Source: Blastocatellia bacterium
Lineage (GTDB): Bacteria; Acidobacteriota; Blastocatellia; UBA7656
Assembly (NCBI GenBank): GCA_039648975.1
Contig: JBBWZK010000135.1
Span: 753 to 64,752, forward strand
Direction of reading: 5' to 3'
DNA: 64,000 bases
Every line of letters starts with the position of its first letter. Position 1 is the first letter of the stretch. The notes under the pieces are model-generated. The model saw only the letters and a list, made by a program, of their open reading frames with translations, did no database searches and was not told the DNA's origin. A program made the position numbers and the translations under genes. Shown here in pieces: positions 3,199 to 35,315 of the stretch.

Positions 3199-3321
3199 TC
3201 GTCTCGCATTGAAGGAAGTATGGAGCGCGTATTACTTATCATTTCAGCGTGATTCTTTCAAGCGCCAGAGCCAGATGATGGCGGGCGGCAGACGCCCGAT
3301 TGTCCGGCGTAAGCGCAGATG

Positions 3322-3353
3322 AAAAGAAGAGGAGCAAGCCGCTCCTCTTCTTC
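3322..3353 (-). terminator. putative intrinsic terminator after paralog 3
   Basis: gaagaggagc (3326-3335) / gctcctcttc (3341-3350) form a perfect 10-bp stem with a 5-nt loop. On the minus-strand RNA the stem runs into a U-rich stretch (CUUCUUUUC). It sits 25 nt downstream of the stop at 3377. Confidence 0.5.
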
Positions 3354-3376
3354 ACTGTAGACAAATGATCGACAGA

Positions 3377-4270
3377 TCAAGGCCGGTCGCCGGGGCGCTT
3401 CAGTTTCGGCGTCGGCTCCTGGTCCTGTGCCGGTGGCTTAGTCGGAGTTGGCGCGGGCTTAGTCTTGTCGGTGGCTTTCGTGTCATCTTCATTGGTGACA
3501 TCGCCCTCATCGAGAACCCGAATTCTGCCGCCGAACCGTTTATAATTCGTGAAGCGCACCGTCATTCGCATGTGAACGCTCGGGCCTTTTTTGAAATCCA
3601 GCACGTCGTCAGCGTAAATGTAAGTTGGAAACCAATACCGTCCGTCGATATTCTCGCGGTAGCTTTCAAAGTGCGGAAACTTTTGATTGCCGACTTCAGG
3701 AACCGCTTGTCCCTGAACTTTAACAACCTGCAAGTCTCGGTCGTCAACCCAGATGCGTCCTTCAAAATAACGCTCGCCTTTAGTGAACTGCTTCGGCTTG
3801 ACGTTAAAGACGTAGGTATTCAATTCATCGACCTTCTCCTTGCCGACATAATCGATCTGGTACTTCGGCAAGTCTTCGGTCGTCAGCGCGAACGGCTGCA
3901 CGCCGGCAAGGTCGCGCATATCTTCGGCAGTCAATTCCAGACCATCTCCGAGATGAGGCGGGGGAAAGTAGGTAATCTTCTCGATACGATTGCCGAGATC
4001 GTCATAGACAATCTCTGAGACGCGCTTGAAGCGACCCGTGATCGAGTCGGCAGCGCCCAGCGTCAACACGTCAAAATCCTGCACGAAGGTGTAGTTGTTG
4101 CGCGCGATCTTATTCTCGCTCTCGGCGGCGGCGAAGCGGCGAATGACATTGGCGATGTCATCTGATACAACCGACTTTGCCGGCTGCGCGACTGCCTTGG
4201 TCTGTTGCGCTAAAGCCGCCGGGCAACAGACCGCAAGCATCAAAAATACCGGAATCAATCTTCTTCTCAT
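3377..4270 (-). CDS. secreted protein, paralog 3 of 3, with C-terminal Pro/Thr/Lys-rich tail
   Basis: Track ORF 3377..4441. I trimmed it to ATG 4270 (MRRRLIPVFLMLAVCCPAALAQ signal peptide, AGGAG 6-10 nt upstream). Same conserved blocks as paralogs 1 and 2 (VDELNTYVFNVKPK, GRIWVDDRDLQVVKVQGQAVP, FPHFESYRENID, NYKRF). Unique tail ...TKATDKTKPAPTPTKPPAQDQEPTPKLKRPGDRP. Confidence 0.7.
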   Translation of the reverse strand: MRRRLIPVFLMLAVCCPAALAQQTKAVAQPAKSVVSDDIANVIRRFAAAESENKIARNNYTFVQDFDVLTLGAADSITGRFKRVSEIVYDDLGNRIEKITYFPPPHLGDGLELTAEDMRDLAGVQPFALTTEDLPKYQIDYVGKEKVDELNTYVFNVKPKQFTKGERYFEGRIWVDDRDLQVVKVQGQAVPEVGNQKFPHFESYRENIDGRYWFPTYIYADDVLDFKKGPSVHMRMTVRFTNYKRFGGRIRVLDEGDVTNEDDTKATDKTKPAPTPTKPPAQDQEPTPKLKRPGDRP

Positions 4271-4457
4271 TGCACATCTCCTGCTCAAGCATTCATCTAA
4301 TTTTAACGGTCTCTTGCTGAACCGCACAAGACGGGCTGAAGGTTTCGAGGGAATTGGATGTTTTGCGGCTGCCCTGGCGTTGGCAGGGTTGGCAGAAGTG
4401 ATCTTGGAAAATCGCGCAATCGTTACTCCACTGGAGAGCAAACAAATTCAGTGCGGA

Positions 4458-5129
4458 TTATTTCTTGCCAAACAAATGTCCCACCGAGTTAAACACATCT
4501 GTATAAAAATTACCGCCGATTTCGCGGACGATCTCGAATGGTAAACCGGGCGCACCAAAAAACGGTCTTAGCGTCCAGGCCAGTTGCGTCCCTACAAAAG
4601 CAAACAGCAGCAGCCAGAATCTGAGGAACATACGCCGGGACTGCATCGACTGTGAGCTATCTTCGGATAGCTGCACATACATGCGGTTGAAAAAGAGAAC
4701 GCCCAACAGGCCGGCAACCGCGAAAAATGCAACATTAAGAATCTTGAAAAACTGATAATTATGGGTTGTCACAATAAAAAATAGAGTGATTGGGGCAAAG
4801 CCGACCAGGGCCAGGCTAATGATGGTGCTACCTGTCGACAGCAAGACCAGGGTTTGCAGAACGGTCCGTTTGGAGCCGAAGAAAGAACTGAAGATGAACA
4901 GGGTCGGCATGCAAATGGCGGCGGTCAGCAAAAACAATATAGGCAGTTTGAAGCAAGACGAAACGGCTTGCAGCAGGCTGTGCTGGCTGCCGATAATCGC
5001 GCCGTACACACCGAATGAGGTAGCGGCAATTGCATTGAGATCAAGCAGTTTTCGTTTCAGGCCGAGCCCCTCTGCGATCTCCTTCACAAAGGCATCGCGA
5101 TCCTGGAGTATTGAAATAAGAGCCTTCAT
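4458..5129 (-). CDS. hypothetical polytopic membrane protein (about 5-6 TM segments)
   Basis: Track ORF of 223 aa with no competing ORF. Several long hydrophobic stretches (LPILFLLTAAICMPTLFIF, LVLLSTGSTIISLALVGFAPITLFFIV, ILNVAFFAVAGLLGVLFF, FLRFWLLLFAFVGTQLAW). AT-richer than its neighbours. Family not recognised. Confidence 0.6.
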   Translation of the reverse strand: MKALISILQDRDAFVKEIAEGLGLKRKLLDLNAIAATSFGVYGAIIGSQHSLLQAVSSCFKLPILFLLTAAICMPTLFIFSSFFGSKRTVLQTLVLLSTGSTIISLALVGFAPITLFFIVTTHNYQFFKILNVAFFAVAGLLGVLFFNRMYVQLSEDSSQSMQSRRMFLRFWLLLFAFVGTQLAWTLRPFFGAPGLPFEIVREIGGNFYTDVFNSVGHLFGKK

Positions 5130-5546
5130 AGACGCACCACCTGCAATGAATTGGGCAACCGGTCTAACCGCTGCCTGATCGGACGAAAAGGCGCATGGGC
5201 ATACGCACGTTCCGCCCTATAAGCCTGCGGCGCTTTCTCTACTTTGCTAATTTCCTGCGATGTACCGCAAAGCTGATTCGCTTCTGCGGCTCAACCCTGA
5301 AGGGCTTACACGGAAACCCGCCTGGCGCGTAGGTTATATCATTGCGGGAATGAGAAGTCTAGCAGTCCGCCCGCGCATCAAGGCACGGCAGTCAACATGT
5401 GCGCTGCTAACCGAGCTTGGATTCTTTTTGACACATATGTTTCTATAAACATTGCGTCCCTACTGCACTGGCCAAAGGCCGAGGGAACGATAGCGACGCG
5501 CAGTTGCCCATATTGACTGAGACGCAGGCCAGGTTTTGGAGATCTA

Positions 5547-7739
<2,193 letters not shown>

Positions 7740-7772
7740 GCTCGCAGTAAAGCAATAAAGACTACAGAGGAT

Positions 7773-9074
7773 ATGATGGCAAAACAATTTGAGATTGATG
7801 ATGAATTCATTGCTGATGAGAATCGCAAAGCCCATGCGTGGGTCGAAGAAGATTACGAGCATCTCGCCCGTGTGCTGCGGCGCAGGAATATAGAGATCGA
7901 AGACCTCACGGCCCGTGCGCAGGCGTTTCGAGTTGCCGTGCCGTCGTGGGGCGTCGGCACGGGCGGGACACGCTTTGCGCGATTTCCTGGCCTGGGCGAG
8001 CCGCGCGACATTTATGAGAAGCTCGAAGACTGCGCCGCGATCTTCAAGCTGGCGCGCGCGACGCCCGCCATATCGCTGCACATCCCCTGGGACAAGCCGG
8101 ATGACGCCGCCCAGTTGCGCGAGTTCGCCACGGAGCGCGGCCTGCACTTTGACGCGATGAACTCGAACACCTTTCAGGATCAGCCCTGGCAAAAACTCTC
8201 ATACAAGTTCGGCAGTCTCACGCACCCTGACCGGGAGGTGCGCCGCCAGGCCATCGAACACAACCTCGAATGTATCGAGATCGGCAAGCTGCTGGGCTCG
8301 AAAGCGCACACCGTGTGGATTGGCGATGGCGGCAACTTTCCCGGGCAGATGCACTTTCGCCGCGCGCTTGAGCGCTATCTCGAAAGCCTTGGCGAAATCT
8401 ACGCGGCGCTGCCAGACGACTGGCGCGTCTTCATTGAGCACAAATTATACGAGCCGGCTTTCTACTCAACGGTGATCAACGATTGGGGGACGAGCTATTA
8501 CTGCGCACGCGAACTGGGGCCAAAGGCCGCTTGCCTGGTTGACCTCGGCCACCATGCGCCGAACGTCAACATCGAGATGATCGTCGCCCGCTTGATTCAA
8601 TTCGGTAAGCTGGCGGGCTTTCATTTCAACGACAGCAAGTATGGCGACGACGATCTGGATGCCGGCTCGATCAAGCCGTTCCAGCTCTTCCTGATCTTCA
8701 ACGAACTGGTAGATGCCGAGTTGAATCAAGTGCCCGGCTTCGACCCGGCTTATATGCTGGATCAGTCGCACAACGTCACAGACCCTATCGAGTCCCTGAT
8801 GATGAGCGCCGGCGAACTCACGCGCGCTTACGTGCAGGCGCACCTCGTTGACCGGCAGGCATTGCAGGAAGCGCAGGAGAAGTGTGACGCGTTGATGGCG
8901 CTGGCGACGCTGAAGCAAGCCTTCACCGCCGATGTCACACCGATACTGGCCGTGGCACGTGAACGTGCGGGCGGCGCGATTGATCCAATCGGCACGTACC
9001 GCAAGAGCGGCTATCGCCAGCAGAAGGCCGAAGAGCGACCGGCGCAAGTGGGCATCGCCGCCGGCATCGTTTGA
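7773..9074 (+). CDS. rhaI: L-rhamnose isomerase, TIM-barrel (Rhizobium/Pseudomonas stutzeri type)
   Basis: 433 aa. The block AVPSWGVGTGGTRFARFPGLGEPRDIYEKLED and the length match the xylose-isomerase-like L-RhI family as I remember it. Flanked by the aldolase and kinase genes. Confidence 0.8.
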   Translation: MMAKQFEIDDEFIADENRKAHAWVEEDYEHLARVLRRRNIEIEDLTARAQAFRVAVPSWGVGTGGTRFARFPGLGEPRDIYEKLEDCAAIFKLARATPAISLHIPWDKPDDAAQLREFATERGLHFDAMNSNTFQDQPWQKLSYKFGSLTHPDREVRRQAIEHNLECIEIGKLLGSKAHTVWIGDGGNFPGQMHFRRALERYLESLGEIYAALPDDWRVFIEHKLYEPAFYSTVINDWGTSYYCARELGPKAACLVDLGHHAPNVNIEMIVARLIQFGKLAGFHFNDSKYGDDDLDAGSIKPFQLFLIFNELVDAELNQVPGFDPAYMLDQSHNVTDPIESLMMSAGELTRAYVQAHLVDRQALQEAQEKCDALMALATLKQAFTADVTPILAVARERAGGAIDPIGTYRKSGYRQQKAEERPAQVGIAAGIV

Positions 9075-9078
9075 GGAA

Positions 9079-9166
9079 GGGGCTAGGGGCTAGGGGCTAG
9101 GGACTAGAGAGCAGAGGTTAGAGGTTAGTCCGGCCTGCCAGCCCCTAGCCCCTAGCCTCTAGCCTC
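9079..9166 (+). repeat. tandem heptamer array (GGGGCTA x3 decaying to GGGACTA GAGAGCA GAGGTTA GAGGTTA) plus downstream complementary C-rich arm; G4 motif and 17-bp hairpin
   Basis: Read directly. G-tracts at 9079-9082, 9086-9089, 9093-9096 and 9100-9102 are separated by CTA. ggctaggggctaggggc (9081-9097) is the exact reverse complement of gcccctagcccctagcc (9141-9157). The whole element fills the rhaI-kinase intergenic gap. Confidence 0.8.
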
Positions 9167-9169
9167 TTT

Positions 9170-10657
9170 ATGACGGAATCGCTATACATCGCGGTTGATC
9201 TTGGCGCAGGCAGCGGGCGTGTGTTCTTGGCTGGTGTCGAGCCGCAGGAGGCGCTGCTCGAAGAGGTGCGCCGCTTCCATTACCCGCCGCGCCGTTCCGC
9301 AGGGCATCTGCGCTGGGATTTGTCGCACATCTTCGCCGAGATCAAGGCCGGACTACGCGCCGCAGGCGAGCGAGCGCGACAACTTGGACGAAGGGTTGCG
9401 AGCCTTGGCGTTGATAGCTGGGGCGTCGATTACGGGCTGATTGATGGGAATGGCGAGGTTATCGAAGACCCTATCTGCTACCGCGATGAACGGACAGGAG
9501 GAATGATTGAACGAGTTGCCTCGCGATTGCCGTGCGCAGAGATTTATGCCCGTACAGGGATTCAGTTGCTCGACTTCAACACCCTCTTTCAACTCTGTGC
9601 GCATAGAGAGGCGGGCATTCCACCAACGGCGACGCGGCTGCTATTGATTCCCGATCTGCTCAACTTCTTGCTCACAGGCCGTGCCGTCACGGAATACACC
9701 AATGCTACGACGACACAACTCATCAACGCGGAGACCGGCGGCTGGGATCGAAGCTTGATCAGCTTGCTTGATTTGCCTGAGTATTGGTTTGCTGACCTCG
9801 TTCAACCAGGCACGGCACTCGGCCCGCTGAAGCCTGAACTAGCCACTGAACTGCAACTCGACGGCGTAAGGGTCGTCGCCCCGGCTACACATGACACAGC
9901 GAGCGCCGTGGCCGGCGCGCCGCTCGAAGACGGCTGGGCTTATATCTCTTCCGGCACATGGTCACTGGTCGGTGTCGAGCGCGACGGCGTGCTTATCAAC
10001 GCCGAAGCCGCGCGTCACAACTTCACGAATGAAGGCGGCGCTTTCGGCACCTTCAGGTTTCTCAAGAATGTCTGCGGTCTGTGGCTGCTTGAATCATGCC
10101 GTAAGGAATGGGCGGCGCAGGGCATCGCCGTCGATTACGATAGCCTGCTCGCGCAGGTCGCCGCCATTGAAGATGAGTCGGGATTGATCTTTCCCGATGA
10201 TCGGCGCTTCTTCAATCCGTCGAGCATGCTAACGGCGATAGCCGAACAGATGGCCGAAAGTAATCAGCCTTACTTCGACGCGCCAGCCGTCGTGGCCAGG
10301 GTCGTTCTCGATTCGCTGGCGCTGCGCTATGCCTCCGTGCTTCATACTATCGAGAAGCTCACCGCGCGAAAGATCGACGGCGTGCAGATTGTCGGCGGCG
10401 GCAGCCGCAACGATTATCTCAATCAAGCGACGGCAACGGCGACTGGCAAGCCTGTGCTGGCCGGGCCTGTAGAGGCGACCGTCACCGGCAATGTGCTGGT
10501 GCAGGCGATTGCCGCCGGTCGCTTCGCGTCATTGATCGATGCGCGGCGGCATATCGCGGAGAATCTGCGGCTGAAGCAGTTTCTGCCTCGACCTTCGGCG
10601 ATTTGGGAAAGACAGGTGCGGCGCTACGCGGCAATCGAAGCGCGCTATGTGAATTGA
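9170..10657 (+). CDS. rhaB: rhamnulokinase (FGGY carbohydrate kinase)
   Basis: 495 aa. N-terminal AVDLGAGSGRV, C-terminal IVGGGSRNDYLNQ, FGGY-type length, rhamnose-cluster context. Confidence 0.8.
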   Translation: MTESLYIAVDLGAGSGRVFLAGVEPQEALLEEVRRFHYPPRRSAGHLRWDLSHIFAEIKAGLRAAGERARQLGRRVASLGVDSWGVDYGLIDGNGEVIEDPICYRDERTGGMIERVASRLPCAEIYARTGIQLLDFNTLFQLCAHREAGIPPTATRLLLIPDLLNFLLTGRAVTEYTNATTTQLINAETGGWDRSLISLLDLPEYWFADLVQPGTALGPLKPELATELQLDGVRVVAPATHDTASAVAGAPLEDGWAYISSGTWSLVGVERDGVLINAEAARHNFTNEGGAFGTFRFLKNVCGLWLLESCRKEWAAQGIAVDYDSLLAQVAAIEDESGLIFPDDRRFFNPSSMLTAIAEQMAESNQPYFDAPAVVARVVLDSLALRYASVLHTIEKLTARKIDGVQIVGGGSRNDYLNQATATATGKPVLAGPVEATVTGNVLVQAIAAGRFASLIDARRHIAENLRLKQFLPRPSAIWERQVRRYAAIEARYVN

Positions 10658-10732
10658 CCCAAAGCCATGCGACTCGCTTTATTCATCACCGGCCCGTAGA
10701 AGTTTAGGTCATCAGAATTGAAGGGTGAGAAC

Positions 10733-12268
10733 ATGACGGATAGCGCCTTGCTCCGTGTTATCGACATCACGAAAGCTTACGCAGGGGTGCAGGCGCTCAA
10801 GAGCGTGTCGTTCGAACTGCGCGCCGGTGAAGTGCATGCGCTGATTGGCGAGAACGGCGCGGGAAAATCGACGCTCATCAAGATCATCACAGGCGCGGTC
10901 GAAGCCGACAGCGGTGAGATTCAGCTCAACCATCAGACGATCACGCACCCTTCTCCGCGCCTGGCGAAATCCCTGGGCATTGCGGCGATCTATCAACAGC
11001 CAGCGCTCTTTCCTGAACTAACAGTGGCGGAAAACATCGCCATCGGTCAGGAGAAGACCGGGCGATGGCGGCGCATCAACTGGCACGAGCGCCGCCGCCG
11101 CGCCGCCGAGTTGCTGGCGCAGGTGGGCGCACGCATTGATCCCGACCAGGAAGCTGGCGATCTGACTATGCCGCAGCAACAACTGGTTGAAATCGCCCGC
11201 GCTCTGGGAGCCGACGCACAGGTTTTGATTTTTGATGAACCGACTGCGTCGCTCTCTGAAGATGACACGCAGAACCTCTTCGGCGTCATTCGCCGTCTGC
11301 GCGCGCAGGGAGTCGGCATGATCTACATCTCACATCGGCTGGAAGAACTGCCCTTGATCGCCGACCGCGTCACGGTGCTGCGCGACGGCTGCGCCATCGG
11401 TACGCACACCATGTCGGAAGTCAGCCGTCAGCAGTTGATTCGACTGATGGTTGGGCGCGAACTGTCGGCGGTCTTCCCAAAACGAGCGGTCAGGTTAGGC
11501 GATGTCGTGCTGGAGCTTTGTCATCTAGGCTGCTCGGCAAACGGGATCAAGGAGATCAATCTACAGTTGCGCGCCGGCGAGATCGTCGGCCTTGCGGGAC
11601 TCGTCGGCGCAGGGCGCACGGAACTGGCGCGAATTATTTTCGGATTGACTCCGGCTGATCGAGGCGAAATTCGGCTCGGTGGCAAACTGGCGCGCTTTGA
11701 CAGCCCGGCAGCGGCAATTGCAGCGGGCCTCGCTTATCTGCCCGAAGACCGGCGGCGTCATGGCGTCATTCTGGAGATGGCTGTAAGCGCCAACATGACG
11801 CTCGCCTTGCTTGATCGGCTTACGCATTTCGGCGCGCTCGATCTTCGCCGCGAGCAAGAGATCGCTGCCGACTATACGCGGCGCTTGAGTATCAAGACGC
11901 CGGCGATCTTTGCGCCCGTCAAGACGCTGTCGGGCGGCAATCAACAAAAAGTCGCGTTGAGCCGCTGGCTGGCGACCAACCCCGCCGTGCTCATTCTCGA
12001 TGAGCCAACGCAGGGAATCGACATCGGCGCGAAGTCCGAGATTCATTCATTGATGGTTGATCTGGCGGCGCAGGGCGTGGCGATTCTGATGATCTCATCT
12101 GAGTTGCCTGAGATTCTCGGCATGAGCGACCGTATCGCCGTCATGCAGAGCGGAAAGATTGTCGGCATTCTGGATCGTATCGAAGCCTCGCCGCAAAGGA
12201 TACTGGCGCTGGCGCTGGGGCATGAAGACGGCGCGGCGGACGGCCCATCTCAAAGGCTGAATACATAA
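10733..12268 (+). CDS. rhaT: sugar (rhamnose) ABC transporter ATP-binding protein, duplicated ATPase
   Basis: Track ORF 10718..12268 starts at TTG; I prefer ATG 10733. Walker A GENGAGKST, degenerate second P-loop GLVGAGRTE, signature LSGGNQQK, Walker B ILDEPT. CUT2-type two-domain architecture. Confidence 0.85.
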   Translation: MTDSALLRVIDITKAYAGVQALKSVSFELRAGEVHALIGENGAGKSTLIKIITGAVEADSGEIQLNHQTITHPSPRLAKSLGIAAIYQQPALFPELTVAENIAIGQEKTGRWRRINWHERRRRAAELLAQVGARIDPDQEAGDLTMPQQQLVEIARALGADAQVLIFDEPTASLSEDDTQNLFGVIRRLRAQGVGMIYISHRLEELPLIADRVTVLRDGCAIGTHTMSEVSRQQLIRLMVGRELSAVFPKRAVRLGDVVLELCHLGCSANGIKEINLQLRAGEIVGLAGLVGAGRTELARIIFGLTPADRGEIRLGGKLARFDSPAAAIAAGLAYLPEDRRRHGVILEMAVSANMTLALLDRLTHFGALDLRREQEIAADYTRRLSIKTPAIFAPVKTLSGGNQQKVALSRWLATNPAVLILDEPTQGIDIGAKSEIHSLMVDLAAQGVAILMISSELPEILGMSDRIAVMQSGKIVGILDRIEASPQRILALALGHEDGAADGPSQRLNT

Positions 12269-27439: not shown

Positions 27440-27655
27440 CTATAGCGGTGTTCAAATCGGTTTAGCATGTAGGGGCGACCCTGCGGTGGCCGCCCCAGTG
27501 TAGGCCGGCGCAGTCTGGGGAGGCCACCGCAGGGCCTCCCCTACATGATGGCGGCTTAATCCAATTGATATCTGCTCTAGAGCGGTTTTCAATTGAATGT
27601 AGCGCAAGCTAACAGCTTGCGCTACATGGCAAACGCATTTGAAAATCGCTCTAAG
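27440..27655. repeat. composite palindromic element, copy A (TIR-like end + double GC-hairpin module 27466-27547 + GTAGCGCAAGC hairpin element 27577-27655)
   Basis: Read directly. Near-identical, in reverse complement, to 56198-56480. Starts 10 nt upstream of the GH51 ATG. Track ORF 27452..27889 is a translation artefact of this DNA. Confidence 0.85.
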
Positions 27656-27894
27656 CCGCACGAGATTAGCATACTCAAGCAGCTTAGAGTAGCTGTTGTT
27701 CTTGAATTCCTTACTGGCGCGAAACCACCGGCTAGAACGCCGGCAGTGCGATGTAGGAGAAGAAAAACGAACCGGAGCTGCCGAGTTCAGTGTGTGACTG
27801 AGTGAAGCCGACATAAGACGCGTCGATGGCTCCGGCGCAGGCGATTGAAGGTGGCGTGAAGAGGGCGTGCGGTTCTCTTCATTGACCATGGCCG

Positions 27895-29385
27895 TTATCT
27901 AACCAGCGTCACTTCAGTCAGGATCGCTTTGAAACTTTCCAAACCGGCTTCTAAATTTTCAATGATTTCCTCCGCCAATTCGTCGGGATTCGGCAGGTTG
28001 TCCAAATCGGCCAGCGATTTGTCTTTAATCCAGGTGATGTCCAGACTCGTCTTGTCACGGTTGATGATCTCTTCGTAAGTAAACTTCCGCCAGCGTCCGT
28101 CGGGGTTGCTTGCCGCATGATAGGTTTCGCTGCGTTTGTGGCGGTTGAGCGGTTGGTAACACTCGATGAACTCTTTCAAATCGCCTAGCCGCAAAGGATT
28201 CTTCTTCAGCGTGTGATGAATGTTGGTGCGGTAATCGTAGTACCAGACTTCTTTCGTCCATGGCGCTTTTGCGGCGGGCCTGGCGTCAAAGAAGATCACG
28301 TTTGCCTTAACGCCGTGAGCGTAAAAGATGCCCGTCGGCAATCGCAGAATCGTATGTAAATCTGCGGTTTCGAGCAATCGCTTGCGGACGGTTTCGCCGG
28401 CTCCGCCTTCAAACAAAACATTGTCCGGCACGACGACAGCCGCTTGCCCCGTCGTCTTGAGCATCGTCTTGATGTGCTGCACGAAGTTGAGTTGTTTGTT
28501 GCTGGTCGTCGCCCAGAAATCCTGCCGGTTATAAGTTAAGTCTTCCTTTTCCTGCTCGCCTTCTTGGTTGGTAAAAGTCTGGCTGCTCTTTTTACCGAAA
28601 GGCGGATTGGCCAGCACATAGTCGAAGCGCCTGCCATCGTCCGCCACCAGCGCATCGGTGGACGAGATGAAATTTTCGCTGTCAATGTCGCCGATGTTAT
28701 GCAGAAACAAATTCATCAAGGCCAGCCGCCGCGTCGAAGCGACGATTTCATTACCGAAAAAGGTTTTGTATTTGAGGAATTGCTTTTGCTCTTTGTCCAG
28801 CTTGGAATTGGCGACTAGAAAATCATAGACGCCGAGAAAGAAACCGCCCGTGCCGCAAGCCGGATCGGCGATGGTTTTTGCGGGTTCGGGCCGGATGCAT
28901 TCGACCATCGCGCGTATCAGGGCGCGCGGCGTGAAGTATTGGCCCGCGCCGCTTTTCGTGTCTTCGGCATTCTTTTCTAGTAGCCCTTCGTAAATCTGGC
29001 CTTTCACATCCGCGCCCATAATGCTCCACTGTTCTTTGTTGATCATGTCGATCAACTTGTAGAGCTTCGCCGGGTCTTGAATCTTGTTCTGGCTTTTGGT
29101 GAAGATTTGTCCGAGGGTGCCTTTCTGGTGGCCGAGTTCACGCAGCAGTGTCGTGTAATGGATTTCGAGTTGCGCGCCGCGTTTGGCGGTCAGGCTTTCC
29201 CAGTTGTATTCGGGCGGCACCGGCAAGGCGCGATTGTGCGGCGGTCGGCTGTATTCATCGGCCATCTTCAGAAACAACAGATAAGTGAGTTGTTCGAGAT
29301 AATCGCCGTAGCTGACGCCGTCGTCGCGCAGCGTATTGCAGAAGCTCCAGACTTTACTGACGATGCTGTTGGTGGTTGCGTCCAT
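27895..29385 (-). CDS. hsdM: type I restriction-modification system, DNA methyltransferase subunit
   Basis: Track ORF 27895..29643 is extended through REP DNA; the true start is ATG 29385 (MDATTNSIVSKVWSFCNTLRDDG). Motif I DPACGTGGFF, motif IV LANPPFG. Confidence 0.9.
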   Translation of the reverse strand: MDATTNSIVSKVWSFCNTLRDDGVSYGDYLEQLTYLLFLKMADEYSRPPHNRALPVPPEYNWESLTAKRGAQLEIHYTTLLRELGHQKGTLGQIFTKSQNKIQDPAKLYKLIDMINKEQWSIMGADVKGQIYEGLLEKNAEDTKSGAGQYFTPRALIRAMVECIRPEPAKTIADPACGTGGFFLGVYDFLVANSKLDKEQKQFLKYKTFFGNEIVASTRRLALMNLFLHNIGDIDSENFISSTDALVADDGRRFDYVLANPPFGKKSSQTFTNQEGEQEKEDLTYNRQDFWATTSNKQLNFVQHIKTMLKTTGQAAVVVPDNVLFEGGAGETVRKRLLETADLHTILRLPTGIFYAHGVKANVIFFDARPAAKAPWTKEVWYYDYRTNIHHTLKKNPLRLGDLKEFIECYQPLNRHKRSETYHAASNPDGRWRKFTYEEIINRDKTSLDITWIKDKSLADLDNLPNPDELAEEIIENLEAGLESFKAILTEVTLVR

Positions 29386-29410
29386 AGTTTTGTTGTTCTG
29401 CCTTTTTCGC

Positions 29411-29740
29411 GGCTTTGCCGCCCGATGGACGGCGATGGCTTTGAGGATTCGCTTTTTCGTGGCTCTGCCGCCTGATCTGCGGAAAGGCTCCGCCTTTCCG
29501 GGCCAGAGCCTCCATAACAGAGACTCCCCCTTACATCGGCGGCTCTGCCGCCTGATCTGCGGAACAGAACCTCCACGAACCGATGCCCGCGAACAAGTGA
29601 AAGCGAAAAGTAAGAAGCCTGATCTGCGGAACAGAACCTCCACGAACCCTCATTGGCGGCTCTGCCGCCTGATCTGCGGAAAGGCTCCGCCTTTCCGTGT
29701 AGAGCCTCCCCCCTTAACCCGCATTGGCGGCTGCGCCGCC
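29411..29740. repeat. cluster of 4-5 REP units (GGCGGCTCTGCCGCC-TGATCTG-CGGAAAGGCTCCGCCTTTCCG and variants)
   Basis: Read directly: full or partial units start near 29411, 29461, 29538, 29617 and 29655, plus GGCGGCTGCGCCGCC at 29726-29740. Each unit is two short GC hairpins. Spacing is irregular (about 40-80 nt). Confidence 0.85.
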
Positions 29741-30382
29741 GTTTATGCCCTGCGCCAATCGATTTTCTCTATATCAACCGCGAGCGGCTCATCTTCCAGT
29801 GCGCGGCGTTGCCAGATTCGCGCGCTTGAATATAAATAATCCGGCGCGCTTTCGACCAATCCGGCGCGCACCGGGTTGAGGTGAATATAATTGACTTTCT
29901 CCATAAACATCGCTTCGCTGAGAATCAGAAAGGCGTTTGAATGATGTTCCCACAAGGAGTATTGGTATTGCCGAGATTTCACTTCCTGCCGCAACTTTTC
30001 CAGCGAACTGGCATACGCTTTTTCTTTCAGGTAATCGATCACGCGCCGGGCCGCGATGCCATTGATAAACCGCAAAACCTCTTTCGGCAGGCGCGCGCCA
30101 TCGGTGATCAAATGAACATGGTCGGGCATGATGACATAGGCGAAAATCAGAATATTCGCCGACCGCCGCGCTTCATTGAAGGCATTGGCGACGATGGCCT
30201 TGATCTGGTTGGTCTGAAAAACCGGCAACCGATCTTTTGCCACACAGGTCAAATAATAGCAGGGCGCGTCTCTGGAAATTCTGACCATGTTGTTTGATCC
30301 TACGGCGGCGCAGCCGCCAACCTTAAAGAGCCCAGCTATCGGAAAGGCCGAGCCTTTCCGCACATCGGGCGGCAGAGCCGCC
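29655..30382 (-). mobile_element. REP-RAYT-REP unit (REP-associated tyrosine transposase flanked by inverted REPs)
   Basis: The left flank (29655-29740) and right flank (30304-30382) carry the same two hairpin motifs in opposite orientation. These are ggcggctgcgccgcc / ggcggcgcagccgcc and cggaaaggc(t/c)c(c/g)gcctttccg with ggcggctctgccgcc / ggcggcagagccgcc. This is the arrangement described for RAYT loci. Confidence 0.75.
29743..30288 (-). CDS. REP-associated tyrosine transposase (RAYT; IS200/IS605 TnpA-like HUH Y1 enzyme)
   Basis: Track ORF 29743..30363, trimmed to ATG 30288 (MVRISRDAPCYYL). HUH motif MPDHVHLI. Tyr motif YIHLNPVRAGLV. 181 aa. Confidence 0.85.
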   Translation of the reverse strand: MVRISRDAPCYYLTCVAKDRLPVFQTNQIKAIVANAFNEARRSANILIFAYVIMPDHVHLITDGARLPKEVLRFINGIAARRVIDYLKEKAYASSLEKLRQEVKSRQYQYSLWEHHSNAFLILSEAMFMEKVNYIHLNPVRAGLVESAPDYLYSSARIWQRRALEDEPLAVDIEKIDWRRA

Positions 30383-30404
30383 GAGTCAACCGCTGCCGCG
30401 CTTG

Positions 30405-31703
30405 TTAATCCGCGCTCTCGGGCGCGACCAGCTTGCCTTCAAACGCCTTTTTCAAGATGCTCTGCCGCAACGCTTCGGCCTGTCGCAAAGAGGCGGCGAT
30501 GGTTTCTTCGAGCTTATCGCAGACGCTCAGACGGCTTTCGATCTCCTGCACAATGCGTTGTTGTTCTCCGAGTAAGCAAAGAGGCAGTTCTAGTTTTGAG
30601 ATTTTGCCTAAACTTAAAGTATGCAATCCCGAAGTCGAGCTTGCTTGTTCCTTGATTTTATCTCTTCCAATTCTTGAACAAAAAAAATGCAAAGCATATG
30701 CAGGTGCTATTCGTTCTGATAGCCGAGCCTTTATCAAATGATTTTGATGAACGCAATTTTCAATAGCGCCATTCCAAATTGCCACACGGCCAATCTGCTC
30801 AATACTGCCATTACCTTCGACAAAAAGTAGATCATTCTTTTTAAGCTTTACTCGCTCTACTTCATTCGCATTCAAACCAATCGTATGAATATCAGTTAAA
30901 TTGAGTGAGTTGAAATAGACATTAGCCACTCTAAGAAAAGGCAATTTCAATTCAAGCTTTTCTCTTTTACTATTCTTTGTAAGTCCGCCTGAAACCTTTG
31001 CAACATCACTCAGTTTTACCCATGTCCAGCCGTTCGGCAACTCGCCGTCGGACACATTTTCATTCGTCAGCTTGCCTTCAAAAGCCCACTTCAACACGGC
31101 CTGGCGGTAGGTCTTTAATTGAGCTTGCGCGATTTTGAGGCTTGCCACACCTGCTTCCAATTCGCTGAAGAGTTCTTCGATCTTGGCGACAATGCGTTGT
31201 TGCTCGGCAAGCGGCGGAAGTGGGAATAGGATGGTTGCCAAATTTTTTCTAGATATTCTTTTTCTTGTCGTCCCGCTTTGAAGTTTTTCAATTTCATTTC
31301 TAAATACAGGGCAATTAATTGCATACATCAAGAACTTATTATTGACTGCGTTCAATCCAGTGCGAATGATAGCAACATCAACTGCCGTTACATATTTGTT
31401 TTCACCTTTCAGGGGGAAAATACAAGCCCTACCAATAGGGTCAGGCATACGAGCAACAAGGACATCACCTTCTTTTAGAAAAGTACAATTTAGTTCGTTG
31501 GCTCTTTGCAAAGTTAGAAATCTTGCGGATTTATTTTTGAAACTTCCATCGCCAATATCAGCCAATTGTATTAGTCGGACTTCGCCATTAGGATTTTGAT
31601 CCTTGGTTTCAATCCAATCTCCATCAACAAACATTCCATCACGGGAAATCAGTTTATCGATAGTCCCAACATCCCAATTTTTCGGTAATCCATTCAAGGC
31701 CAT
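30405..31703 (-). CDS. hsdS: type I restriction-modification system, specificity subunit
   Basis: Track ORF 30405..31793 is extended through a REP; the true start is ATG 31703 (MALNGLPKNWDV). There are two AT-rich target-recognition regions. They are separated and followed by conserved helical repeats: LPPLAEQQRIVAKIEELFSELE...AFEGKL and LPLCLLGEQQRIVQEIESRLSVCD...AFEGKL. Confidence 0.9.
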   Translation of the reverse strand: MALNGLPKNWDVGTIDKLISRDGMFVDGDWIETKDQNPNGEVRLIQLADIGDGSFKNKSARFLTLQRANELNCTFLKEGDVLVARMPDPIGRACIFPLKGENKYVTAVDVAIIRTGLNAVNNKFLMYAINCPVFRNEIEKLQSGTTRKRISRKNLATILFPLPPLAEQQRIVAKIEELFSELEAGVASLKIAQAQLKTYRQAVLKWAFEGKLTNENVSDGELPNGWTWVKLSDVAKVSGGLTKNSKREKLELKLPFLRVANVYFNSLNLTDIHTIGLNANEVERVKLKKNDLLFVEGNGSIEQIGRVAIWNGAIENCVHQNHLIKARLSERIAPAYALHFFCSRIGRDKIKEQASSTSGLHTLSLGKISKLELPLCLLGEQQRIVQEIESRLSVCDKLEETIAASLRQAEALRQSILKKAFEGKLVAPESAD

Positions 31704-31726
31704 AAATTTTAATCGATCCTCAAGCA

Positions 31727-31772
31727 ACCGGCGGCTCTGCCGCCTGATGTGCGGAAAGGCTCGGCCTTTCCG
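31727..31772. repeat. single REP unit (same family as 29411-29740) between hsdR stop and hsdS start
   Basis: ccggcggctctgccgcctgatgtgcggaaaggctcggcctttccgg, read directly. Confidence 0.85.
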
Positions 31773-31817
31773 GCAAGTGGATAATAAATTCATTGAGGCT
31801 GCGCCTCAATGTCTTAA

Positions 31818-34604
31818 CTACACCGCCAAAGCCTCATTCATCTCTTCGATAATCGCATCCATTTCGCTGCCGAAAAGCTGATACATTTTGCCGAGTCCGC
31901 CCGCCGGGGCAAACGGCTCATACTCGAAATCGTCGCGCTCGATGTGAAACGAATTCGCGACGTGGTCTTTGATCATTCTGAGCCATGCCATCTGTTCTTC
32001 GTTGAATTTCAAGGCTCCGGCCTGTTTGCCGAAAACCCACGTCTGAAAATTGCGGTCAACCGTTCTGCCGTATTCGGTCAACGTCGCGTCAATGCCGCAG
32101 ACACGGCGCACCAGCGACACCATAGCAATCAATTCGTTGCCGGGCGAACCGTTCACCGTTTCCAATTGCTGATACGCCCGCCAGACGTTGAGCGGCGCCA
32201 GGTGCGGTCGCCCGCTACGCAATTTGTCGCACAGTTCGCGAATCATCGCGTAAGTCAATTCGCGGCGGCGAACGGGCTGGCTATAAAAAATCTGCAACGC
32301 GGTGATTTCGTCTTTATGCTCGGCGATCCACACGGCGAAATCGCTGATCATCGCCGTCGCCTGTTCCTGATTGTCGGCGTTCCATCCGGCGTTGATCAGC
32401 TTGTCGGGATTGATGATGTCGATAATCTGATCGAGCGCTTTGCGCAGGTTGACGACCAGTTCATTCAGTTCGCCTGTAAAAACTTCGGCGGCCTGTTCAA
32501 TGATCTCCGCGTGCCGGGCATTGAGCTTTTCTTCGACTTGTTCAGGCGCAAGCGGCGGCGACTGGCGGTTGATTTGCTCGCGCAATGCGTCGAGTTGATC
32601 GGCATCATAGGCGGTCAGCAAATTTCTGGCGACTTCCTTGATCGACCGGCCACCGGATTTGTCCTTGAACTGCTCGCGCTGTTTGTCGCTGATCTGTTTA
32701 TCGAGACGAATCAAGCGATTGGCCAGCGAAGAAAAAACGTCTTCGTCGCGCACGCCGACGGCGACCGCCGCGAGCAAATCTTTCAGCGCCACGCCCGGAT
32801 TTCTTTCGAGCGGCTGGCTGTCGGTCTTACAGCTTCGAGTGACGCCGACGGCATCGACGATGACGAAATGGTCTTTGGTAAACTTGGCGGTCCTGGAAAC
32901 TTTGCGCAGATCATCAAGCTCAATCGTTCGCGTGCCGCGCCCTTTCATCTGCTCGAAATAGTTGCGGCTGCGCACGTCGCGCATAAAGAGCAGACACTCC
33001 AGCGGCTTCACATCGGTTCCCGTCGCAATCATATCGACGGTGACGGCAATGCGCGGGTGATAATCGTTGCGAAATTGCGCGAGAATCGATTTCGGGTCTT
33101 CATCGGTTTTGTAGGTCACCTTTTTGCAGAAGCGATTGCCTTCGCCGAACTCTTCGCGGACGATCTGAATAATGTCGTCGGCGTGGCTATCGGTCTTGGC
33201 AAAGATCAGCGTTTTGGGAATCTCGAACTCGCCGTTCTCGTCCCGCCGGTCGGGAAACATTTCGGGCAGACGCGCTTTGAAGGTGCGAATCACCAGCCGT
33301 ATTTGATTGGGATTGACGACGGAATTATCCAGATGAGTCGCCGTGTAGGTTGTGTCTTCGTCAAGCTGTTGCCATCGTTTCTTGCGCGAGAGTTTGTCGC
33401 GGCGGTCTATGAATTCGCCCATCTTCAGCGTCGCGCCTTGTTTTGTGATTTCGGTTTCGATGAGGTAATTGTTGAAGCCGACATTGACGCCGTCAATCAC
33501 GGCTTGCTCGTGGGTGTATTCGCTGACGATGTTTTGATTGAAATAACCGAAGGTGCGATTGTCGGGCGTCGCAGTCAAGCCGATTTGAAAGGCGTCGAAG
33601 TATTCCAAGACCTGTTTCCAGAGGTTGTAAATGCTGCGGTGGCATTCGTCAATCACGACGAAATCGAAAAACTCAATCGGCAGTTTCTCGCTATAAGCAA
33701 CCGGCACAGGTTCTTTCGGTAGCCAGTGCTCGTTGGGGTTTTCGAGCTCGGCGGATTCGTCCAGTTCCGTGCCTCGCAGAATCGAATACAACCGCTGAAT
33801 GGTGCTGATGTAAACCTGATTGTCGGTCGGGATGTAGGCGGATTTCAAGCGATGCACGCCGTAAAGTTCGGTGAATTTGCGATTGTCGTCATTCGGCAGG
33901 TAGGCCATGAATTCCTGCTCGGCCTGTTCGCCGAGATTCTTCGTATCGACCAGGAACAGGATGCGTTTGGCGTTGGTGTATTTCAGCAGACGGTAAATGA
34001 AAGTGATCGCGGTGAACGTCTTGCCTGAACCCGTCGCCATTTGAATCAAGGCTTTCGGCTGATTCTTCCTGAAAGATATTTCAAGATGATTGATCGCAAT
34101 GATCTGGCAGTCGCGCAAATACGCAATCGGTAACTCAGGCAACTTCTGCAAATCGTTCCGCAAAGTACACGGCTGTTTCAACCAATCGCGCAAAGTCTCG
34201 GCACGGTGAAAGGAAAAGACGGGGCGCGAACGCGGTTTCAAATCGCGGTAATCGGTAAAGCGTGTCAGTTCTCCCGTGCTCTCATAAACAAACGGCAGTG
34301 GGTCGTTGTTAAGGTATTTGAGCTTTGCCTGTGCGTAATCTGTTGATTGATCTTCAATCTGGGTCAGTCGGAATCCTTCGCCTGCTTTTTTGGCTTCGAT
34401 TACTCCAACGGGCTTTTTATCAACAAACAAAACGTAATCGGCAGGCCCCACATCGGTTTGATATTCGCGCACCGCGACGCCTGGCGAAGCGCCGAGATTG
34501 ATTTGCTTCTTGCTCTGCACCGCCCAACCGCAAGCGCGGAGTTGCTTATCAATCTGGTCGCGAGCAAGCTGTTCCGGGTTTTGGTTTGTCGTCTTGTCTG
34601 GCAT
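31818..34604 (-). CDS. hsdR: type I restriction enzyme, restriction (helicase/nuclease) subunit
   Basis: 928 aa. N-terminal nuclease-like region. Helicase motif I QMATGSGKTFTA, motif II VIDECHRS, later TATPDNRT and QMKGRGTR. The 592-aa antisense ORF 31944..33722 is a shadow. Confidence 0.9.
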   Translation of the reverse strand: MPDKTTNQNPEQLARDQIDKQLRACGWAVQSKKQINLGASPGVAVREYQTDVGPADYVLFVDKKPVGVIEAKKAGEGFRLTQIEDQSTDYAQAKLKYLNNDPLPFVYESTGELTRFTDYRDLKPRSRPVFSFHRAETLRDWLKQPCTLRNDLQKLPELPIAYLRDCQIIAINHLEISFRKNQPKALIQMATGSGKTFTAITFIYRLLKYTNAKRILFLVDTKNLGEQAEQEFMAYLPNDDNRKFTELYGVHRLKSAYIPTDNQVYISTIQRLYSILRGTELDESAELENPNEHWLPKEPVPVAYSEKLPIEFFDFVVIDECHRSIYNLWKQVLEYFDAFQIGLTATPDNRTFGYFNQNIVSEYTHEQAVIDGVNVGFNNYLIETEITKQGATLKMGEFIDRRDKLSRKKRWQQLDEDTTYTATHLDNSVVNPNQIRLVIRTFKARLPEMFPDRRDENGEFEIPKTLIFAKTDSHADDIIQIVREEFGEGNRFCKKVTYKTDEDPKSILAQFRNDYHPRIAVTVDMIATGTDVKPLECLLFMRDVRSRNYFEQMKGRGTRTIELDDLRKVSRTAKFTKDHFVIVDAVGVTRSCKTDSQPLERNPGVALKDLLAAVAVGVRDEDVFSSLANRLIRLDKQISDKQREQFKDKSGGRSIKEVARNLLTAYDADQLDALREQINRQSPPLAPEQVEEKLNARHAEIIEQAAEVFTGELNELVVNLRKALDQIIDIINPDKLINAGWNADNQEQATAMISDFAVWIAEHKDEITALQIFYSQPVRRRELTYAMIRELCDKLRSGRPHLAPLNVWRAYQQLETVNGSPGNELIAMVSLVRRVCGIDATLTEYGRTVDRNFQTWVFGKQAGALKFNEEQMAWLRMIKDHVANSFHIERDDFEYEPFAPAGGLGKMYQLFGSEMDAIIEEMNEALAV

Positions 34605-35205
34605 CCGCTTTGTGCAGCCCGAACAATTTCCAGGCCGATTTTAGCCCATAAGTTTGCTATGCGCTATGCCGTGCTAATTTCTTTATCGTTTCTTTTGCGA
34701 TAAGGCTGGGGCGGGCAACTCGCCTGAATAATAACCACTGACGATCCGCCTACGAGCAGAAGTTCATATCCGCATATTGATTTGCCGTTGCCCTTACGCT
34801 ATCCCCACGATGTAGGGCATGACATCAAACGCCGATCTCTACGCGAAATCAAAAAGCCAGAAGTTGCACACGCTATTTCAGGGCTATGGAGTTAATCTTA
34901 TGATGGGCATGGGTGGACTAAAGACCTTTGCGGAAGCGGAAAGAATATAATGAGCCGCGGCATCTACTTAATTCAAAGCGACGGTCAACTCGTTGAAATG
35001 ACCGAACGGGCGTATGACTCCGAGGACTTGCTGCATATCATTGCTCCGCCTATCCCTGTAAGAGCAGGGCATCGTCGTTTCGTCTCTCCTCTAAAATCAG
35101 GTTGGCAATCAATTCTTTGTGGTATATTTCTGTTCGGGTTACCACTTCAAAGTAAAGACAGTTTAGCTCTGGTAAGTCTTGCCGTTTCTGCGAACAGAAT
35201 AGCGA

Positions 35206-35315
35206 CTTAGAGCGGTTTTTAATCGGATGTAGCGCAAGCGGTTAGCTTGCGCAGCGACTCGCGCAAGCTAACCGCCTTGCGCTACATGGCAAACGCATTT
35301 GAAAATCGCTCTAAG
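35206..35315. repeat. palindromic GTAGCGCAAGC-type element, two-hairpin copy
   Basis: cttagagcggtttttaatcggatGTAGCGCAAGCggttaGCTTGCGCagcgactcGCGCAAGCtaaccgccTTGCGCTACatggcaaacgcatttgaaaatcgctctaag. The ends are inverted repeats of each other. Confidence 0.85.

Follow-up and report, generated by a model that had tools for sequence, protein, structure and literature searches.

A REP-associated tyrosine transposase and its repeats in the hsdS-hsdM junction of a type I restriction-modification operon, and a sub-lineage found at similar boundaries

Introduction

How does a REP-associated tyrosine transposase (RAYT; REP, repetitive extragenic palindrome), together with a set of its repeats, come to lie inside a type I restriction-modification (R-M) operon? 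The arrangement occurs in a 64-kb window of contig JBBWZK010000135.1, part of a metagenome-assembled genome (MAG; ~85% complete) of a Blastocatellia bacterium, here called G000; all coordinates given for this locus are positions in the window. An earlier note on this DNA had read the gene order as hsdR-hsdS-[REP-RAYT-REP]-hsdM, entirely on the minus strand, and the list of open reading frames (ORFs) and a Pfam scan confirmed this order. RAYTs are viewed as single-copy, vertically inherited and almost housekeeping-like genes, and their spread to new lineages and their retention by hosts are open questions (Bertels et al. 2017, PMC5581495).

Here, we report that a RAYT inside an R-M operon is not a one-off, with 13 further examples among the relatives of this gene. 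The reading we favor, at a probability of about 0.7, is that a type I hsd cassette, intact and acquired horizontally, has a variable cargo slot at its hsdS-hsdM junction, that a REPtron (a RAYT gene between its REP units) occupies this slot, and that the REPtron belongs to a lineage lodging at R-M specificity junctions.

Identity of the transposase gene

The RAYT gene (29743 to 30288, minus strand) encodes an intact 181-aa protein of the class 2 TnpA-Y1 type, with a match to PF01797 (29.5 bits). The protein passed the cut-off of the RAYT equivalog NCBIfam NF047646 (91.7 bits; cut-off, 80) and failed that of the IS200 equivalog (25.9 bits; cut-off, 55). Its HUH motif reads MPDHVHLI, in which D56 and H59 were invariant and H57 was at least 90% conserved among 47 homologues; the motif was found in 91 of 93 homologues. 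The Tyr motif, YIHLNPVRAGLV, has the form Y-x3-NP, with Y134 and N138 invariant and P139 at least 90% conserved in the same 47 proteins. The Y-x3-NP arrangement is the signature of class 2 (Quentin et al. 2018, Table 1, PMC6006769). The earlier description of a 181-aa RAYT with HUH and Tyr motifs was therefore borne out, with the catalytic residues kept on alignment.

An AlphaFold model of the protein (predicted local distance difference test score [pLDDT], 93.4) had as its top fold match the REP-hairpin complex of Escherichia coli TnpA-REP (4ER8; E value, 1.7e-8; template-modelling [TM] scores, 0.62/0.68), followed at ranks 2 to 30 by IS200/IS605 transposases. The top match in a sequence search was likewise TnpA-REP. 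The motifs D-H-x-H, W-E and Y-I-H-x-N-P are nearest to those of subclass 2.2 (Quentin et al. 2018, PMC6006769), which corresponds to Group 2 (Bertels et al. 2017, PMC5581495). By tblastn, the gene was present in a single copy in the 85%-complete assembly of G000, and PADLOC returned no match for it. A second RAYT, 23% identical and from a different family, is located on contig C266. Judged by its motifs, predicted fold and flanking repeats, the gene is a bona fide RAYT with cognate REPs. Approximately 170 relatives were recovered from species genomes and 258 from metagenomes, almost all labelled Blastocatellia, Pyrinomonadaceae or Chloracidobacterium.

RAYT relatives at methylase/specificity boundaries

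The R-M-embedded relatives fall into several configurations. In a Pyrinomonadaceae MAG (locus L104; RAYT identity, 72%), the RAYT lies between hsdS and hsdR of an hsdM-hsdS-hsdR operon from a different hsd family (HsdM 28% identical). In locus L194 (74%), it separates hsdM from hsdS in an operon of the same order. It also lies between hsdM and hsdS in locus L115 (73%), where a 47-nt hsdM 3' end occurs four times and brackets each of several stacked cassettes. In the other loci (L034, L043, L114, L122, L197-L199 and L201-L203; RAYT identity, 64 to 75%), the gene was found between an ORF of 582 to 587 aa with ISP_coupler and N6_Mtase domains and an ORF carrying the Type_ISP_C target-recognition domain (TRD). 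These two ORFs map to residues 6 to 585 and 592 to 922 of a single PADLOC type IIG model, and homologues spanning the junction (65 to 78% identity) are single "type ISP restriction/modification enzyme" proteins of 995 to 1,060 aa that comprise coupler, methyltransferase (MTase) and TRD. As the unsplit homologues are one ORF, the RAYT and REP cassette splits a normally single gene exactly at its MTase/TRD boundary. Across the ISP-like loci (in L198, at 2765-7491), both halves of the split gene are still open, and the TRD ORF measures approximately 445 to 490 aa.

The association with R-M genes was concentrated among the closest relatives. An R-M context was observed for 10 of the 13 loci with context at a RAYT identity of at least 69%, compared with 1 of 12 at 65 to 69%, 1 of 61 at 60 to 65% and none of 56 at 50 to 60%; below 69% identity, the total was 2 of 129. 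On a tree of 170 proteins, the R-M label required 4 changes, compared with 13.6 in shuffles (0 of 500 shuffles as low). With the present window included, all 14 R-M-embedded RAYTs were co-directional with the R-M genes, and 13 of the 14 cassettes had a methylase module on one side and a specificity module on the other. In 1.48 Mb of flanking sequence, which served as an internal control, only a single additional R-M-like match was located away from a RAYT. The suggestion in the earlier note that the R-M operon serves as a safe harbor thus gained real support, since nearly all of the RAYTs most similar to the window RAYT reside within R-M systems.

Some of these placements may share a common origin. 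The ISP-like loci share synteny and may reflect one vertically inherited event, so that the independent R-M insertions probably number 4 to 5 rather than 14. A sister relationship between the window RAYT and that of L104, seen in a first tree (support, 96/63), was discarded when it became a polytomy on addition of more close homologues. The only non-R-M locus among the closest loci tabulated was L195 (RAYT identity, 72%), where the gene, with one REP unit per side (5417-9931), lies co-directionally between the small/medium and the large xanthine-dehydrogenase-type subunit genes; the RAYT lineage therefore tolerates other operon-internal gaps as well. In L115 (Ga0183260_10029353, 489-2712), the 47-nt hsdM 3' ends, which include the ATGA junction, start at 489, 1292, 1748 and 2666. 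Every copy marks the end of one of the cassettes that separate hsdM from hsdS, which hold two small ORFs, a bare REPIN (an inverted REP doublet) and the RAYT, an integron-like stacking.

No description of RAYTs at R-M junctions was found in the literature searched on RAYT/REPIN with restriction-modification, type I restriction or hsdS. R-M contexts are likewise not mentioned in two surveys of these genes (Bertels et al. 2017, PMC5581495; Quentin et al. 2018, PMC6006769). While the REPtron is known as a kind of element, a RAYT sub-lineage habitually residing at the R-M methylase/specificity boundary appears to be new.

The hsd cassette and its cargo slot

All parts of a type I R-M system are present at the locus. 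The hsdR gene (31818 to 34604, minus strand) encodes an intact, 928-aa restriction subunit of the EcoAI/EcoEI type (type IB-like) with Pfam ResIII, EcoEI_R_C, HSDR_N and Helicase_C domains, including the PD-(D/E)xK nuclease and DEAD helicase. It matched NCBIfam PRK11448 and the EcoAI family, and its C terminus aligned to the end with those of its relatives. The 432-aa HsdS (30405 to 31703, minus strand; Pfam Methylase_S twice, PADLOC Specificity_I) has two AT-rich TRDs, and the intact, 496-aa N6 MTase HsdM (27895 to 29385, minus strand; Pfam HsdM_N and N6_Mtase, PADLOC MTase_I at 639 bits) carries the motifs DPACGTGGF and NPPF. By their NCBIfam and PADLOC assignments, the hsd genes belong to the EcoAI/EcoEI-like type I group. 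The operon is intact, with all ORFs at full length and with catalytic motifs, save for a C-terminal tail of 33 to 46 aa that the HsdS proteins of relatives carry in the alignment and this one does not.

Alignment with relatives set the start of hsdM at 29385 (MDATTN) and that of hsdS at 31703 (MALNGLPKNW). Three longer ORF entries (582 aa from GTG at 29643, 206 aa from GTG at 30363 and 462 aa from ATG at 31793) are artifacts of reading through the repeats, as the earlier note had recognized from peptides such as RRQSRR and GKAEPFR. The GC content of hsdS is 42%, compared with 52 to 53% for hsdM and hsdR, and the same pattern was seen in relatives. This GC content and the 98%-identical inverted REP units on each side of the gene had raised the idea that hsdS was a recent REP-bounded import, which was rejected because AT-rich TRDs with GC-normal conserved regions occur in all relatives. 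A stretch that precedes hsdM (KKRILKAIAVHRAAKPRKRQ, compared with ERIRAERAIREAESKPAKPTRKKR) might derive from the missing HsdS tail, but the similarity was too weak for such a claim.

HsdM was 82 to 94% identical to proteins in records from Acidobacteria, Brocadia, Ignavibacteria, Nitrospirae and Bacteroidota, which marks the cassette family as very mobile, and G000 is inferred to have acquired its copy horizontally. Gene order in the family was always R-S-[slot]-M, and the slot content varied. In L206 (HsdM identity, 92%), it is empty, with a 35-nt S-M spacer and a 1-nt R-S spacer, while in L204 (94%) it holds DUF4062 plus a SLFN_AlbA_2/HATPase_c_4 (Schlafen-like ATPase) protein. More distant members carry AbiEi/AbiEii (L027 in genome G021; HsdM identity, 58%) or a 74-aa ORF (L026 in genome G011; 61%). 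The comparison of hsd loci with and without the RAYT that the earlier note had proposed thus yielded an empty slot in L206 and other cargo in L204, L027 and L026, and on these loci the S-M junction is a general cargo slot in this hsd family. As separate observations, the SLFN_AlbA_2/HATPase_c_4 protein in the L204 slot (5155-7175) gave weak pAgo-associated and CARF/WYL-like PADLOC matches, and the L027 slot (9865-12197) contains AbiEi/AbiEii(+WYL); in this hsd family, the slot acts as a defense-cargo site.

DNA homology to L204 and L206 delimits the mobile hsdR-hsdS-[slot]-hsdM cassette at 27888 to 34702 on the minus strand. The homologous DNA (blastn identity, 87 to 89% to L204 and 81 to 85% to L206) runs from 34702 to 31823, continues through the conserved parts of hsdS down to approximately 30420, and resumes from 29394 to 27888. 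The REPtron segment in between (29395 to 30419; 1,025 nt) replaces 125 nt of the empty L206 arrangement, namely the hsdS tail and the spacer. The R-S spacer is 116 nt here, compared with 1 to 48 nt or a 4-nt overlap in relatives. The premise of the earlier note that hsdS and hsdM are normally co-translated partners does not hold for this R-S-M family, in which 35 nt separate S from M in the empty relative, and R and S are instead tightly joined. The cassette was not found in four other genomes of the genus. A comparison of the empty site by synteny was sought through the flanking peroxidase gene, which is absent from the same-genus genomes.

Structure and placement of the REP units

REP units of this RAYT occupy all three gaps between hsdR, hsdS, RAYT and hsdM. 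Each unit is a composite of hairpin 1 (hp1), GGCGGCnnnGCCGCC (GGCGGC-nnn-GCCGCC), a linker of 7 to 8 nt, and hairpin 2 (hp2), CGGAAAGGCnnnGCCTTTCCG (CGGAAAGGC-nnn-GCCTTTCCG). Full units lie in one orientation at 29458-29500, 29655-29697 and 31729-31772 and in the opposite orientation at 30340-30383, with truncated units at 29536-29564 and 29617-29648 and a lone hp1 at 29409-29423. The units at 29655-29697 and 30340-30383 are 93% complementary and inverted across the RAYT, and next to the gene lies an inner 19-nt inverted pair with 100% complementarity (29724-29742 and 30302-30320). The 5' flank of the RAYT (30302 to 30383) thus consists of unit 30340-30383, reading hp1 to hp2 on the gene strand, and an inner hairpin, while the 3' flank (29398 to 29742) contains the other inner hairpin, two full units, two truncated units and the lone hp1. 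This latter flank is the REP array that the earlier note had placed 5' of hsdM. It had also placed one REP hairpin between hsdR and hsdS, at 31727-31772; a REP is indeed located there, not as a single hairpin but as a whole half-REPIN (31729 to 31811) that combines unit 31729-31772 with hairpin TGAGGCnnnGCCTCA at 31791-31811. Over 79 nt, the half-REPIN matches the 3'-flanking sequence of the L104 RAYT at 85% identity.

On the gene strand, the layout from hsdR to the RAYT is hsdR - [hp1''-spacer-hp2-linker-hp1] - hsdS - [hp1-linker-hp2]-20 nt-[hp1'] - RAYT, and it continues as [hp1']-26 nt-[hp2-linker-hp1], followed before hsdM by two truncated units and a further full unit. The corresponding REPtron layout, [hp1-linker-hp2]-~20 nt-[hp1']-RAYT-[hp1']-~25 nt-[hp2-linker-hp1], is shared by L029, L030, L104 and most of 90 homologues, of which approximately 85% have REPs in this inverted arrangement. 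In homologues, 56 of 66 upstream flanking units read hp1 to hp2, and 55 of 66 downstream units read hp2 to hp1.

Each hairpin pattern occurred 4 times in the window, compared with an expectation of 0. The stems covary: among 58 units, gathered with a pattern that did not demand complementarity, stems such as CGGAAAGGC, CGGTGAGTC, CGGAAAAGC, CGGAAAGTC and CGGAGAGGC were each accompanied by the exact complement. Stem cells were paired in 99.8% of cases, compared with 88% in shuffles, and 9 of 14 pairs had compensatory changes (0 of 500 shuffles as high). On this covariation evidence, the REP hairpins are under selection.

As RNA, the REP array upstream of hsdM folded at -166 kcal/mol (z = -5.2 compared with shuffles), and the R-S spacer likewise gave z = -4.0. 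Rfam contained no family matching the repeats. A scan of the locus for sigma-70 promoters and intrinsic terminators gave counts no higher than those of shuffles, and the sole terminator-like element was hairpin 31791-31811, which has a T-rich tail and lies just after hsdR. The canonical 5' GT[AG]G foot was not found on the REP units; the four bases 5' of hp2 are TGTG, TCTG, TGAG or TTTG. This foot is typical of subclasses 2.2, 2.4, 2.5, 2.7 and 2.8, while subclasses 2.6 and 3 are without it (PMC6006769). The unit is therefore best described as an atypical REP; the missing foot is no bar to class 2 membership, but the assignment to subclass 2.2 is uncertain.

REP population in the genome and its relatives

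The earlier note had called for a genome-wide census of the REP family, and the census located it elsewhere in G000, at 12 further extragenic sites. A degenerate hp2 pattern matched 18 sites, 4 at the hsd locus and 14 on ten other contigs, with 0 matches for a reversed-pattern control. A fuzzy composite scan gave the 12 sites outside the locus, 9 of which are inverted doublets approximately 118 nt apart (REPINs), located between long ORFs. The idea that the family is confined to the hsd locus, based on exact patterns and blastn-short, was overturned by these two scans. The dispersed population is small, with tens of copies. Its REPINs have the linker TTKGCTGTG, while the linker of the four units at the hsd locus is CTGATCTG, CTGATGTG or CCGATGTG. 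As locus L198 has both linker types beside a single RAYT, both may be substrates of one enzyme.

Closed genomes with a RAYT of the same family had 15 to 29 dispersed sites, and among 40 relatives the hairpins occurred essentially only where such a RAYT or a sister-clade RAYT was present. Four same-genus genomes had 0 to 1 hairpin sites, no RAYT and no hsdM homologue; RAYT, REPs and hsd cassette are thus jointly present in G000 and jointly missing from these genomes. The contig also bears GTAG-footed repeat families that are abundant in G000 and is therefore not mis-binned.

Several other repeats were observed. Genome G007, of the same taxonomic family, contains 51 hp2-type hairpins genome-wide, mainly CGGAGAGTC...GACTCTCCG paired with CGGAAAGGC..., although the sole related RAYT in this genome, at 35% identity, is a member of a sister clade; the two-hairpin REP type therefore predates the RAYT clade studied here. 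On C266, the second RAYT-like gene (29640-30203; region C266:29465-30267) has the motifs PDHLHLV and YVLLNPVRRGYV and is flanked by inverted GGGGCGACCCTCTGTGGTCGCCCC hairpins. It is the likely cognate of a GTAGGGGCGACC-type REP with approximately 130 copies genome-wide, of which an inverted doublet lies at 27466-27547 of the window. G000 therefore contains two or more distinct RAYT/REP systems. The hsd cassette is flanked on each side (27577-27655 and 35206-35315) by palindromic GTAGCGCAAGC...GCTTGCGCTAC elements, of which the genome has approximately 100 copies. An 86-aa ORF upstream of hsdR (MSRGIYLIQSDGQLVEMTERAYDSEDLL...; 34950-35210) stops where one of these GTAGCGCAAGC elements starts and may be a truncated gene fragment. 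A k-mer count of G000 also revealed very abundant heptamer tandem repeats (TGCGTGA, CGGCGAC-G, TGATGAA and TTGTCAC) and a CTATAAACATTGCGCTCCTACGGAGC family of approximately 200 copies.

Proposed explanation and alternatives

In the explanation that we favor, the REPtron would be a lodger and not a part of the restriction machine. R-M cassettes would suit it well, as they are hard to lose, move horizontally and offer a recombination-prone junction beside the specificity gene. By riding such cassettes, an otherwise immobile RAYT could enter new genomes, where it may then seed or maintain REPINs in trans by using its HUH and Tyr residues to cut and rejoin hairpins in single-stranded DNA (ssDNA), an activity that has been demonstrated for the E. 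coli TnpA-REP (PDB 4ER8). The inserted cassette would uncouple hsdR from hsdS and lengthen the S-M gap with stable hairpins, which may modulate the polycistronic mRNA and, as the earlier note had proposed, may shift the M:S:R stoichiometry.

Several observations weigh against this explanation. The close hsd relatives L204 and L206 are without a RAYT, and the RAYT family has been seen almost only in Acidobacteriota, so that any role of the cassette as a vehicle would be at most short-range. Given their different linker, the dispersed REPINs of G000 may belong to another RAYT located in the missing 15% of the MAG, and the L104 genome has REP hairpins solely inside its own hsd locus. In a tree of the closest 36 proteins, moreover, the R-M-embedded lineages form an unresolved basal grade (polytomy), with non-R-M clades arising within it.

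The confinement of the L104 hairpins to the hsd locus would also be expected if the RAYT and REPs were a selected part of the R-M system, acting in the exchange of TRDs, hsdS or cargo, as a hairpin-specific ssDNA nuclease in defense, or on subunit ratios. The recurrent co-directional placement at methylase/TRD boundaries in at least four configurations, the presence of defense accessories (AbiE and the Schlafen-like ATPase) in the same slot, the stacking of L115 cassettes between repeated hsdM 3' ends and the location of hsdS between 98%-identical inverted REP units here all point the same way. However, the closest hsd relatives do without a RAYT, having an empty slot or other cargo, and the same RAYT family is mostly found outside R-M loci, with ordinary dispersed REPINs. 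The RAYT had no PADLOC match, the locus contains one hsdS and no spare TRD copies, and the hsdS genes beside related RAYTs are unrelated in sequence, and we consider a functional partnership unlikely. We assign similarly low odds to a version in which the RAYT sub-lineage is a selected resident whose cutting and joining of REP hairpins moves specificity genes or cargo into and out of the junction in an integron-like manner, the R-M cassette being a vehicle for the RAYT and founder REPINs into naive genomes. Such an active resident would account for the stacked L115 cassettes and for the split of the ISP-like MTase-TRD gene.

Chance could also have placed the REPtron neutrally in a tolerant intergenic gap, with the R-M association reflecting one old, vertically inherited insertion and sampling. 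This is consistent with the flanking genes shared by the ISP-like loci (ABC_tran downstream), which may be one event, with the poor resolution of the tree, and with sister lineages in ordinary operons, such as that between the xdh subunit genes in L195. Yet three hsd configurations in two unrelated hsd families, together with the ISP-like gene, need several independent placements, and neither the single stray R-M match in the flanks nor the co-direction of all 14 cassettes favors chance, which we therefore regard as improbable. Least probable is that the element is an IS200/IS605-type insertion sequence that moves autonomously, or that such an insertion has disrupted an hsd locus in decay. The PF01797 (IS200-like) match is weak, and the insertion does take away the HsdS C-terminal tail and uncouple R from S. 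In contrast, the Tyr motif is of the class 2 form and not Y-x3-Q, the RAYT equivalog was passed and the IS200 equivalog was not, the gene is single copy, its flanks are symmetric inverted repeats with no distinct left and right end hairpins, and the full-length hsd ORFs with their catalytic motifs argue against decay. On balance, lodging of the REPtron lineage at R-M specificity junctions is the reading that we retain.

Comparison with known systems

The element resembles the E. coli REPtron (TnpA-REP, RayT/YafM, with REPs arranged in bacterial interspersed mosaic elements [BIMEs]) in its HUH and Y-x3-NP enzyme of approximately 165 to 180 aa with the D-H-x-H, W-E and Y-I-H-x-N-P motifs (the 4ER8 protein). 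As in E. coli, a single-copy gene lies between inverted cognate hairpins, and the same hairpins are dispersed as extragenic inverted doublets. In contrast to E. coli, the REP here has two hairpins and no GT[AG]G foot, with TGTG or TCTG before hp2, and its population numbers tens rather than hundreds of copies. The host is an acidobacterium, and the gene lies inside an R-M operon, which is habitual for the sub-lineage.

Accessory genes within type I R-M operons include the anticodon nuclease gene prrC in the EcoprrI hsd locus and the rlo genes of Campylobacter hsd loci. As with these, a foreign gene here occupies an hsd gene junction and points in the same direction. The prrC and rlo cargoes are defense or toxin modules, whereas the cargo in this case is a hairpin-mobilizing HUH enzyme with its own repeat population and no PADLOC match.

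Phase-variable type I systems, such as the ivr locus of Streptococcus pneumoniae, also have a gene for a DNA-rearranging enzyme beside hsdS and inverted repeats nearby (Atack et al. 2020, PMC7394358). However, they use tyrosine or serine site-specific recombinases, several partial hsdS copies and repeats within coding sequence (PMC7394358), while the present locus has one hsdS, extragenic hairpins and a predicted Y1 HUH ssDNA nuclease. A phase-variable hsdS shufflon was rejected on the single hsdS and the extragenic position of the repeats. The IS200/IS605 transposases (TnpA of IS608 and ISDra2) share the HUH/Y1 fold and ssDNA hairpin recognition, but the RAYT is without Y-x3-Q, is not multicopy, has no TnpB and has symmetric inverted flanks.

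Implications

For R-M biology, these loci show that cargo of various kinds can occupy the junction next to the specificity gene, which is a general slot, and that insertion of a REP/RAYT cassette can turn a fused MTase-TRD enzyme into the products of two genes. The slot and the gene split both bear on the exchange of specificity modules and on the balance of subunit expression. For RAYTs, a lineage that habitually resides at the specificity junction of R-M cassettes, which are mobile and hard to lose, would provide a concrete and testable route for both spread and persistence. G000 looks like a natural case of this route, as it has the RAYT, the REPINs and the hsd cassette, whereas all three are absent from its four congeners.

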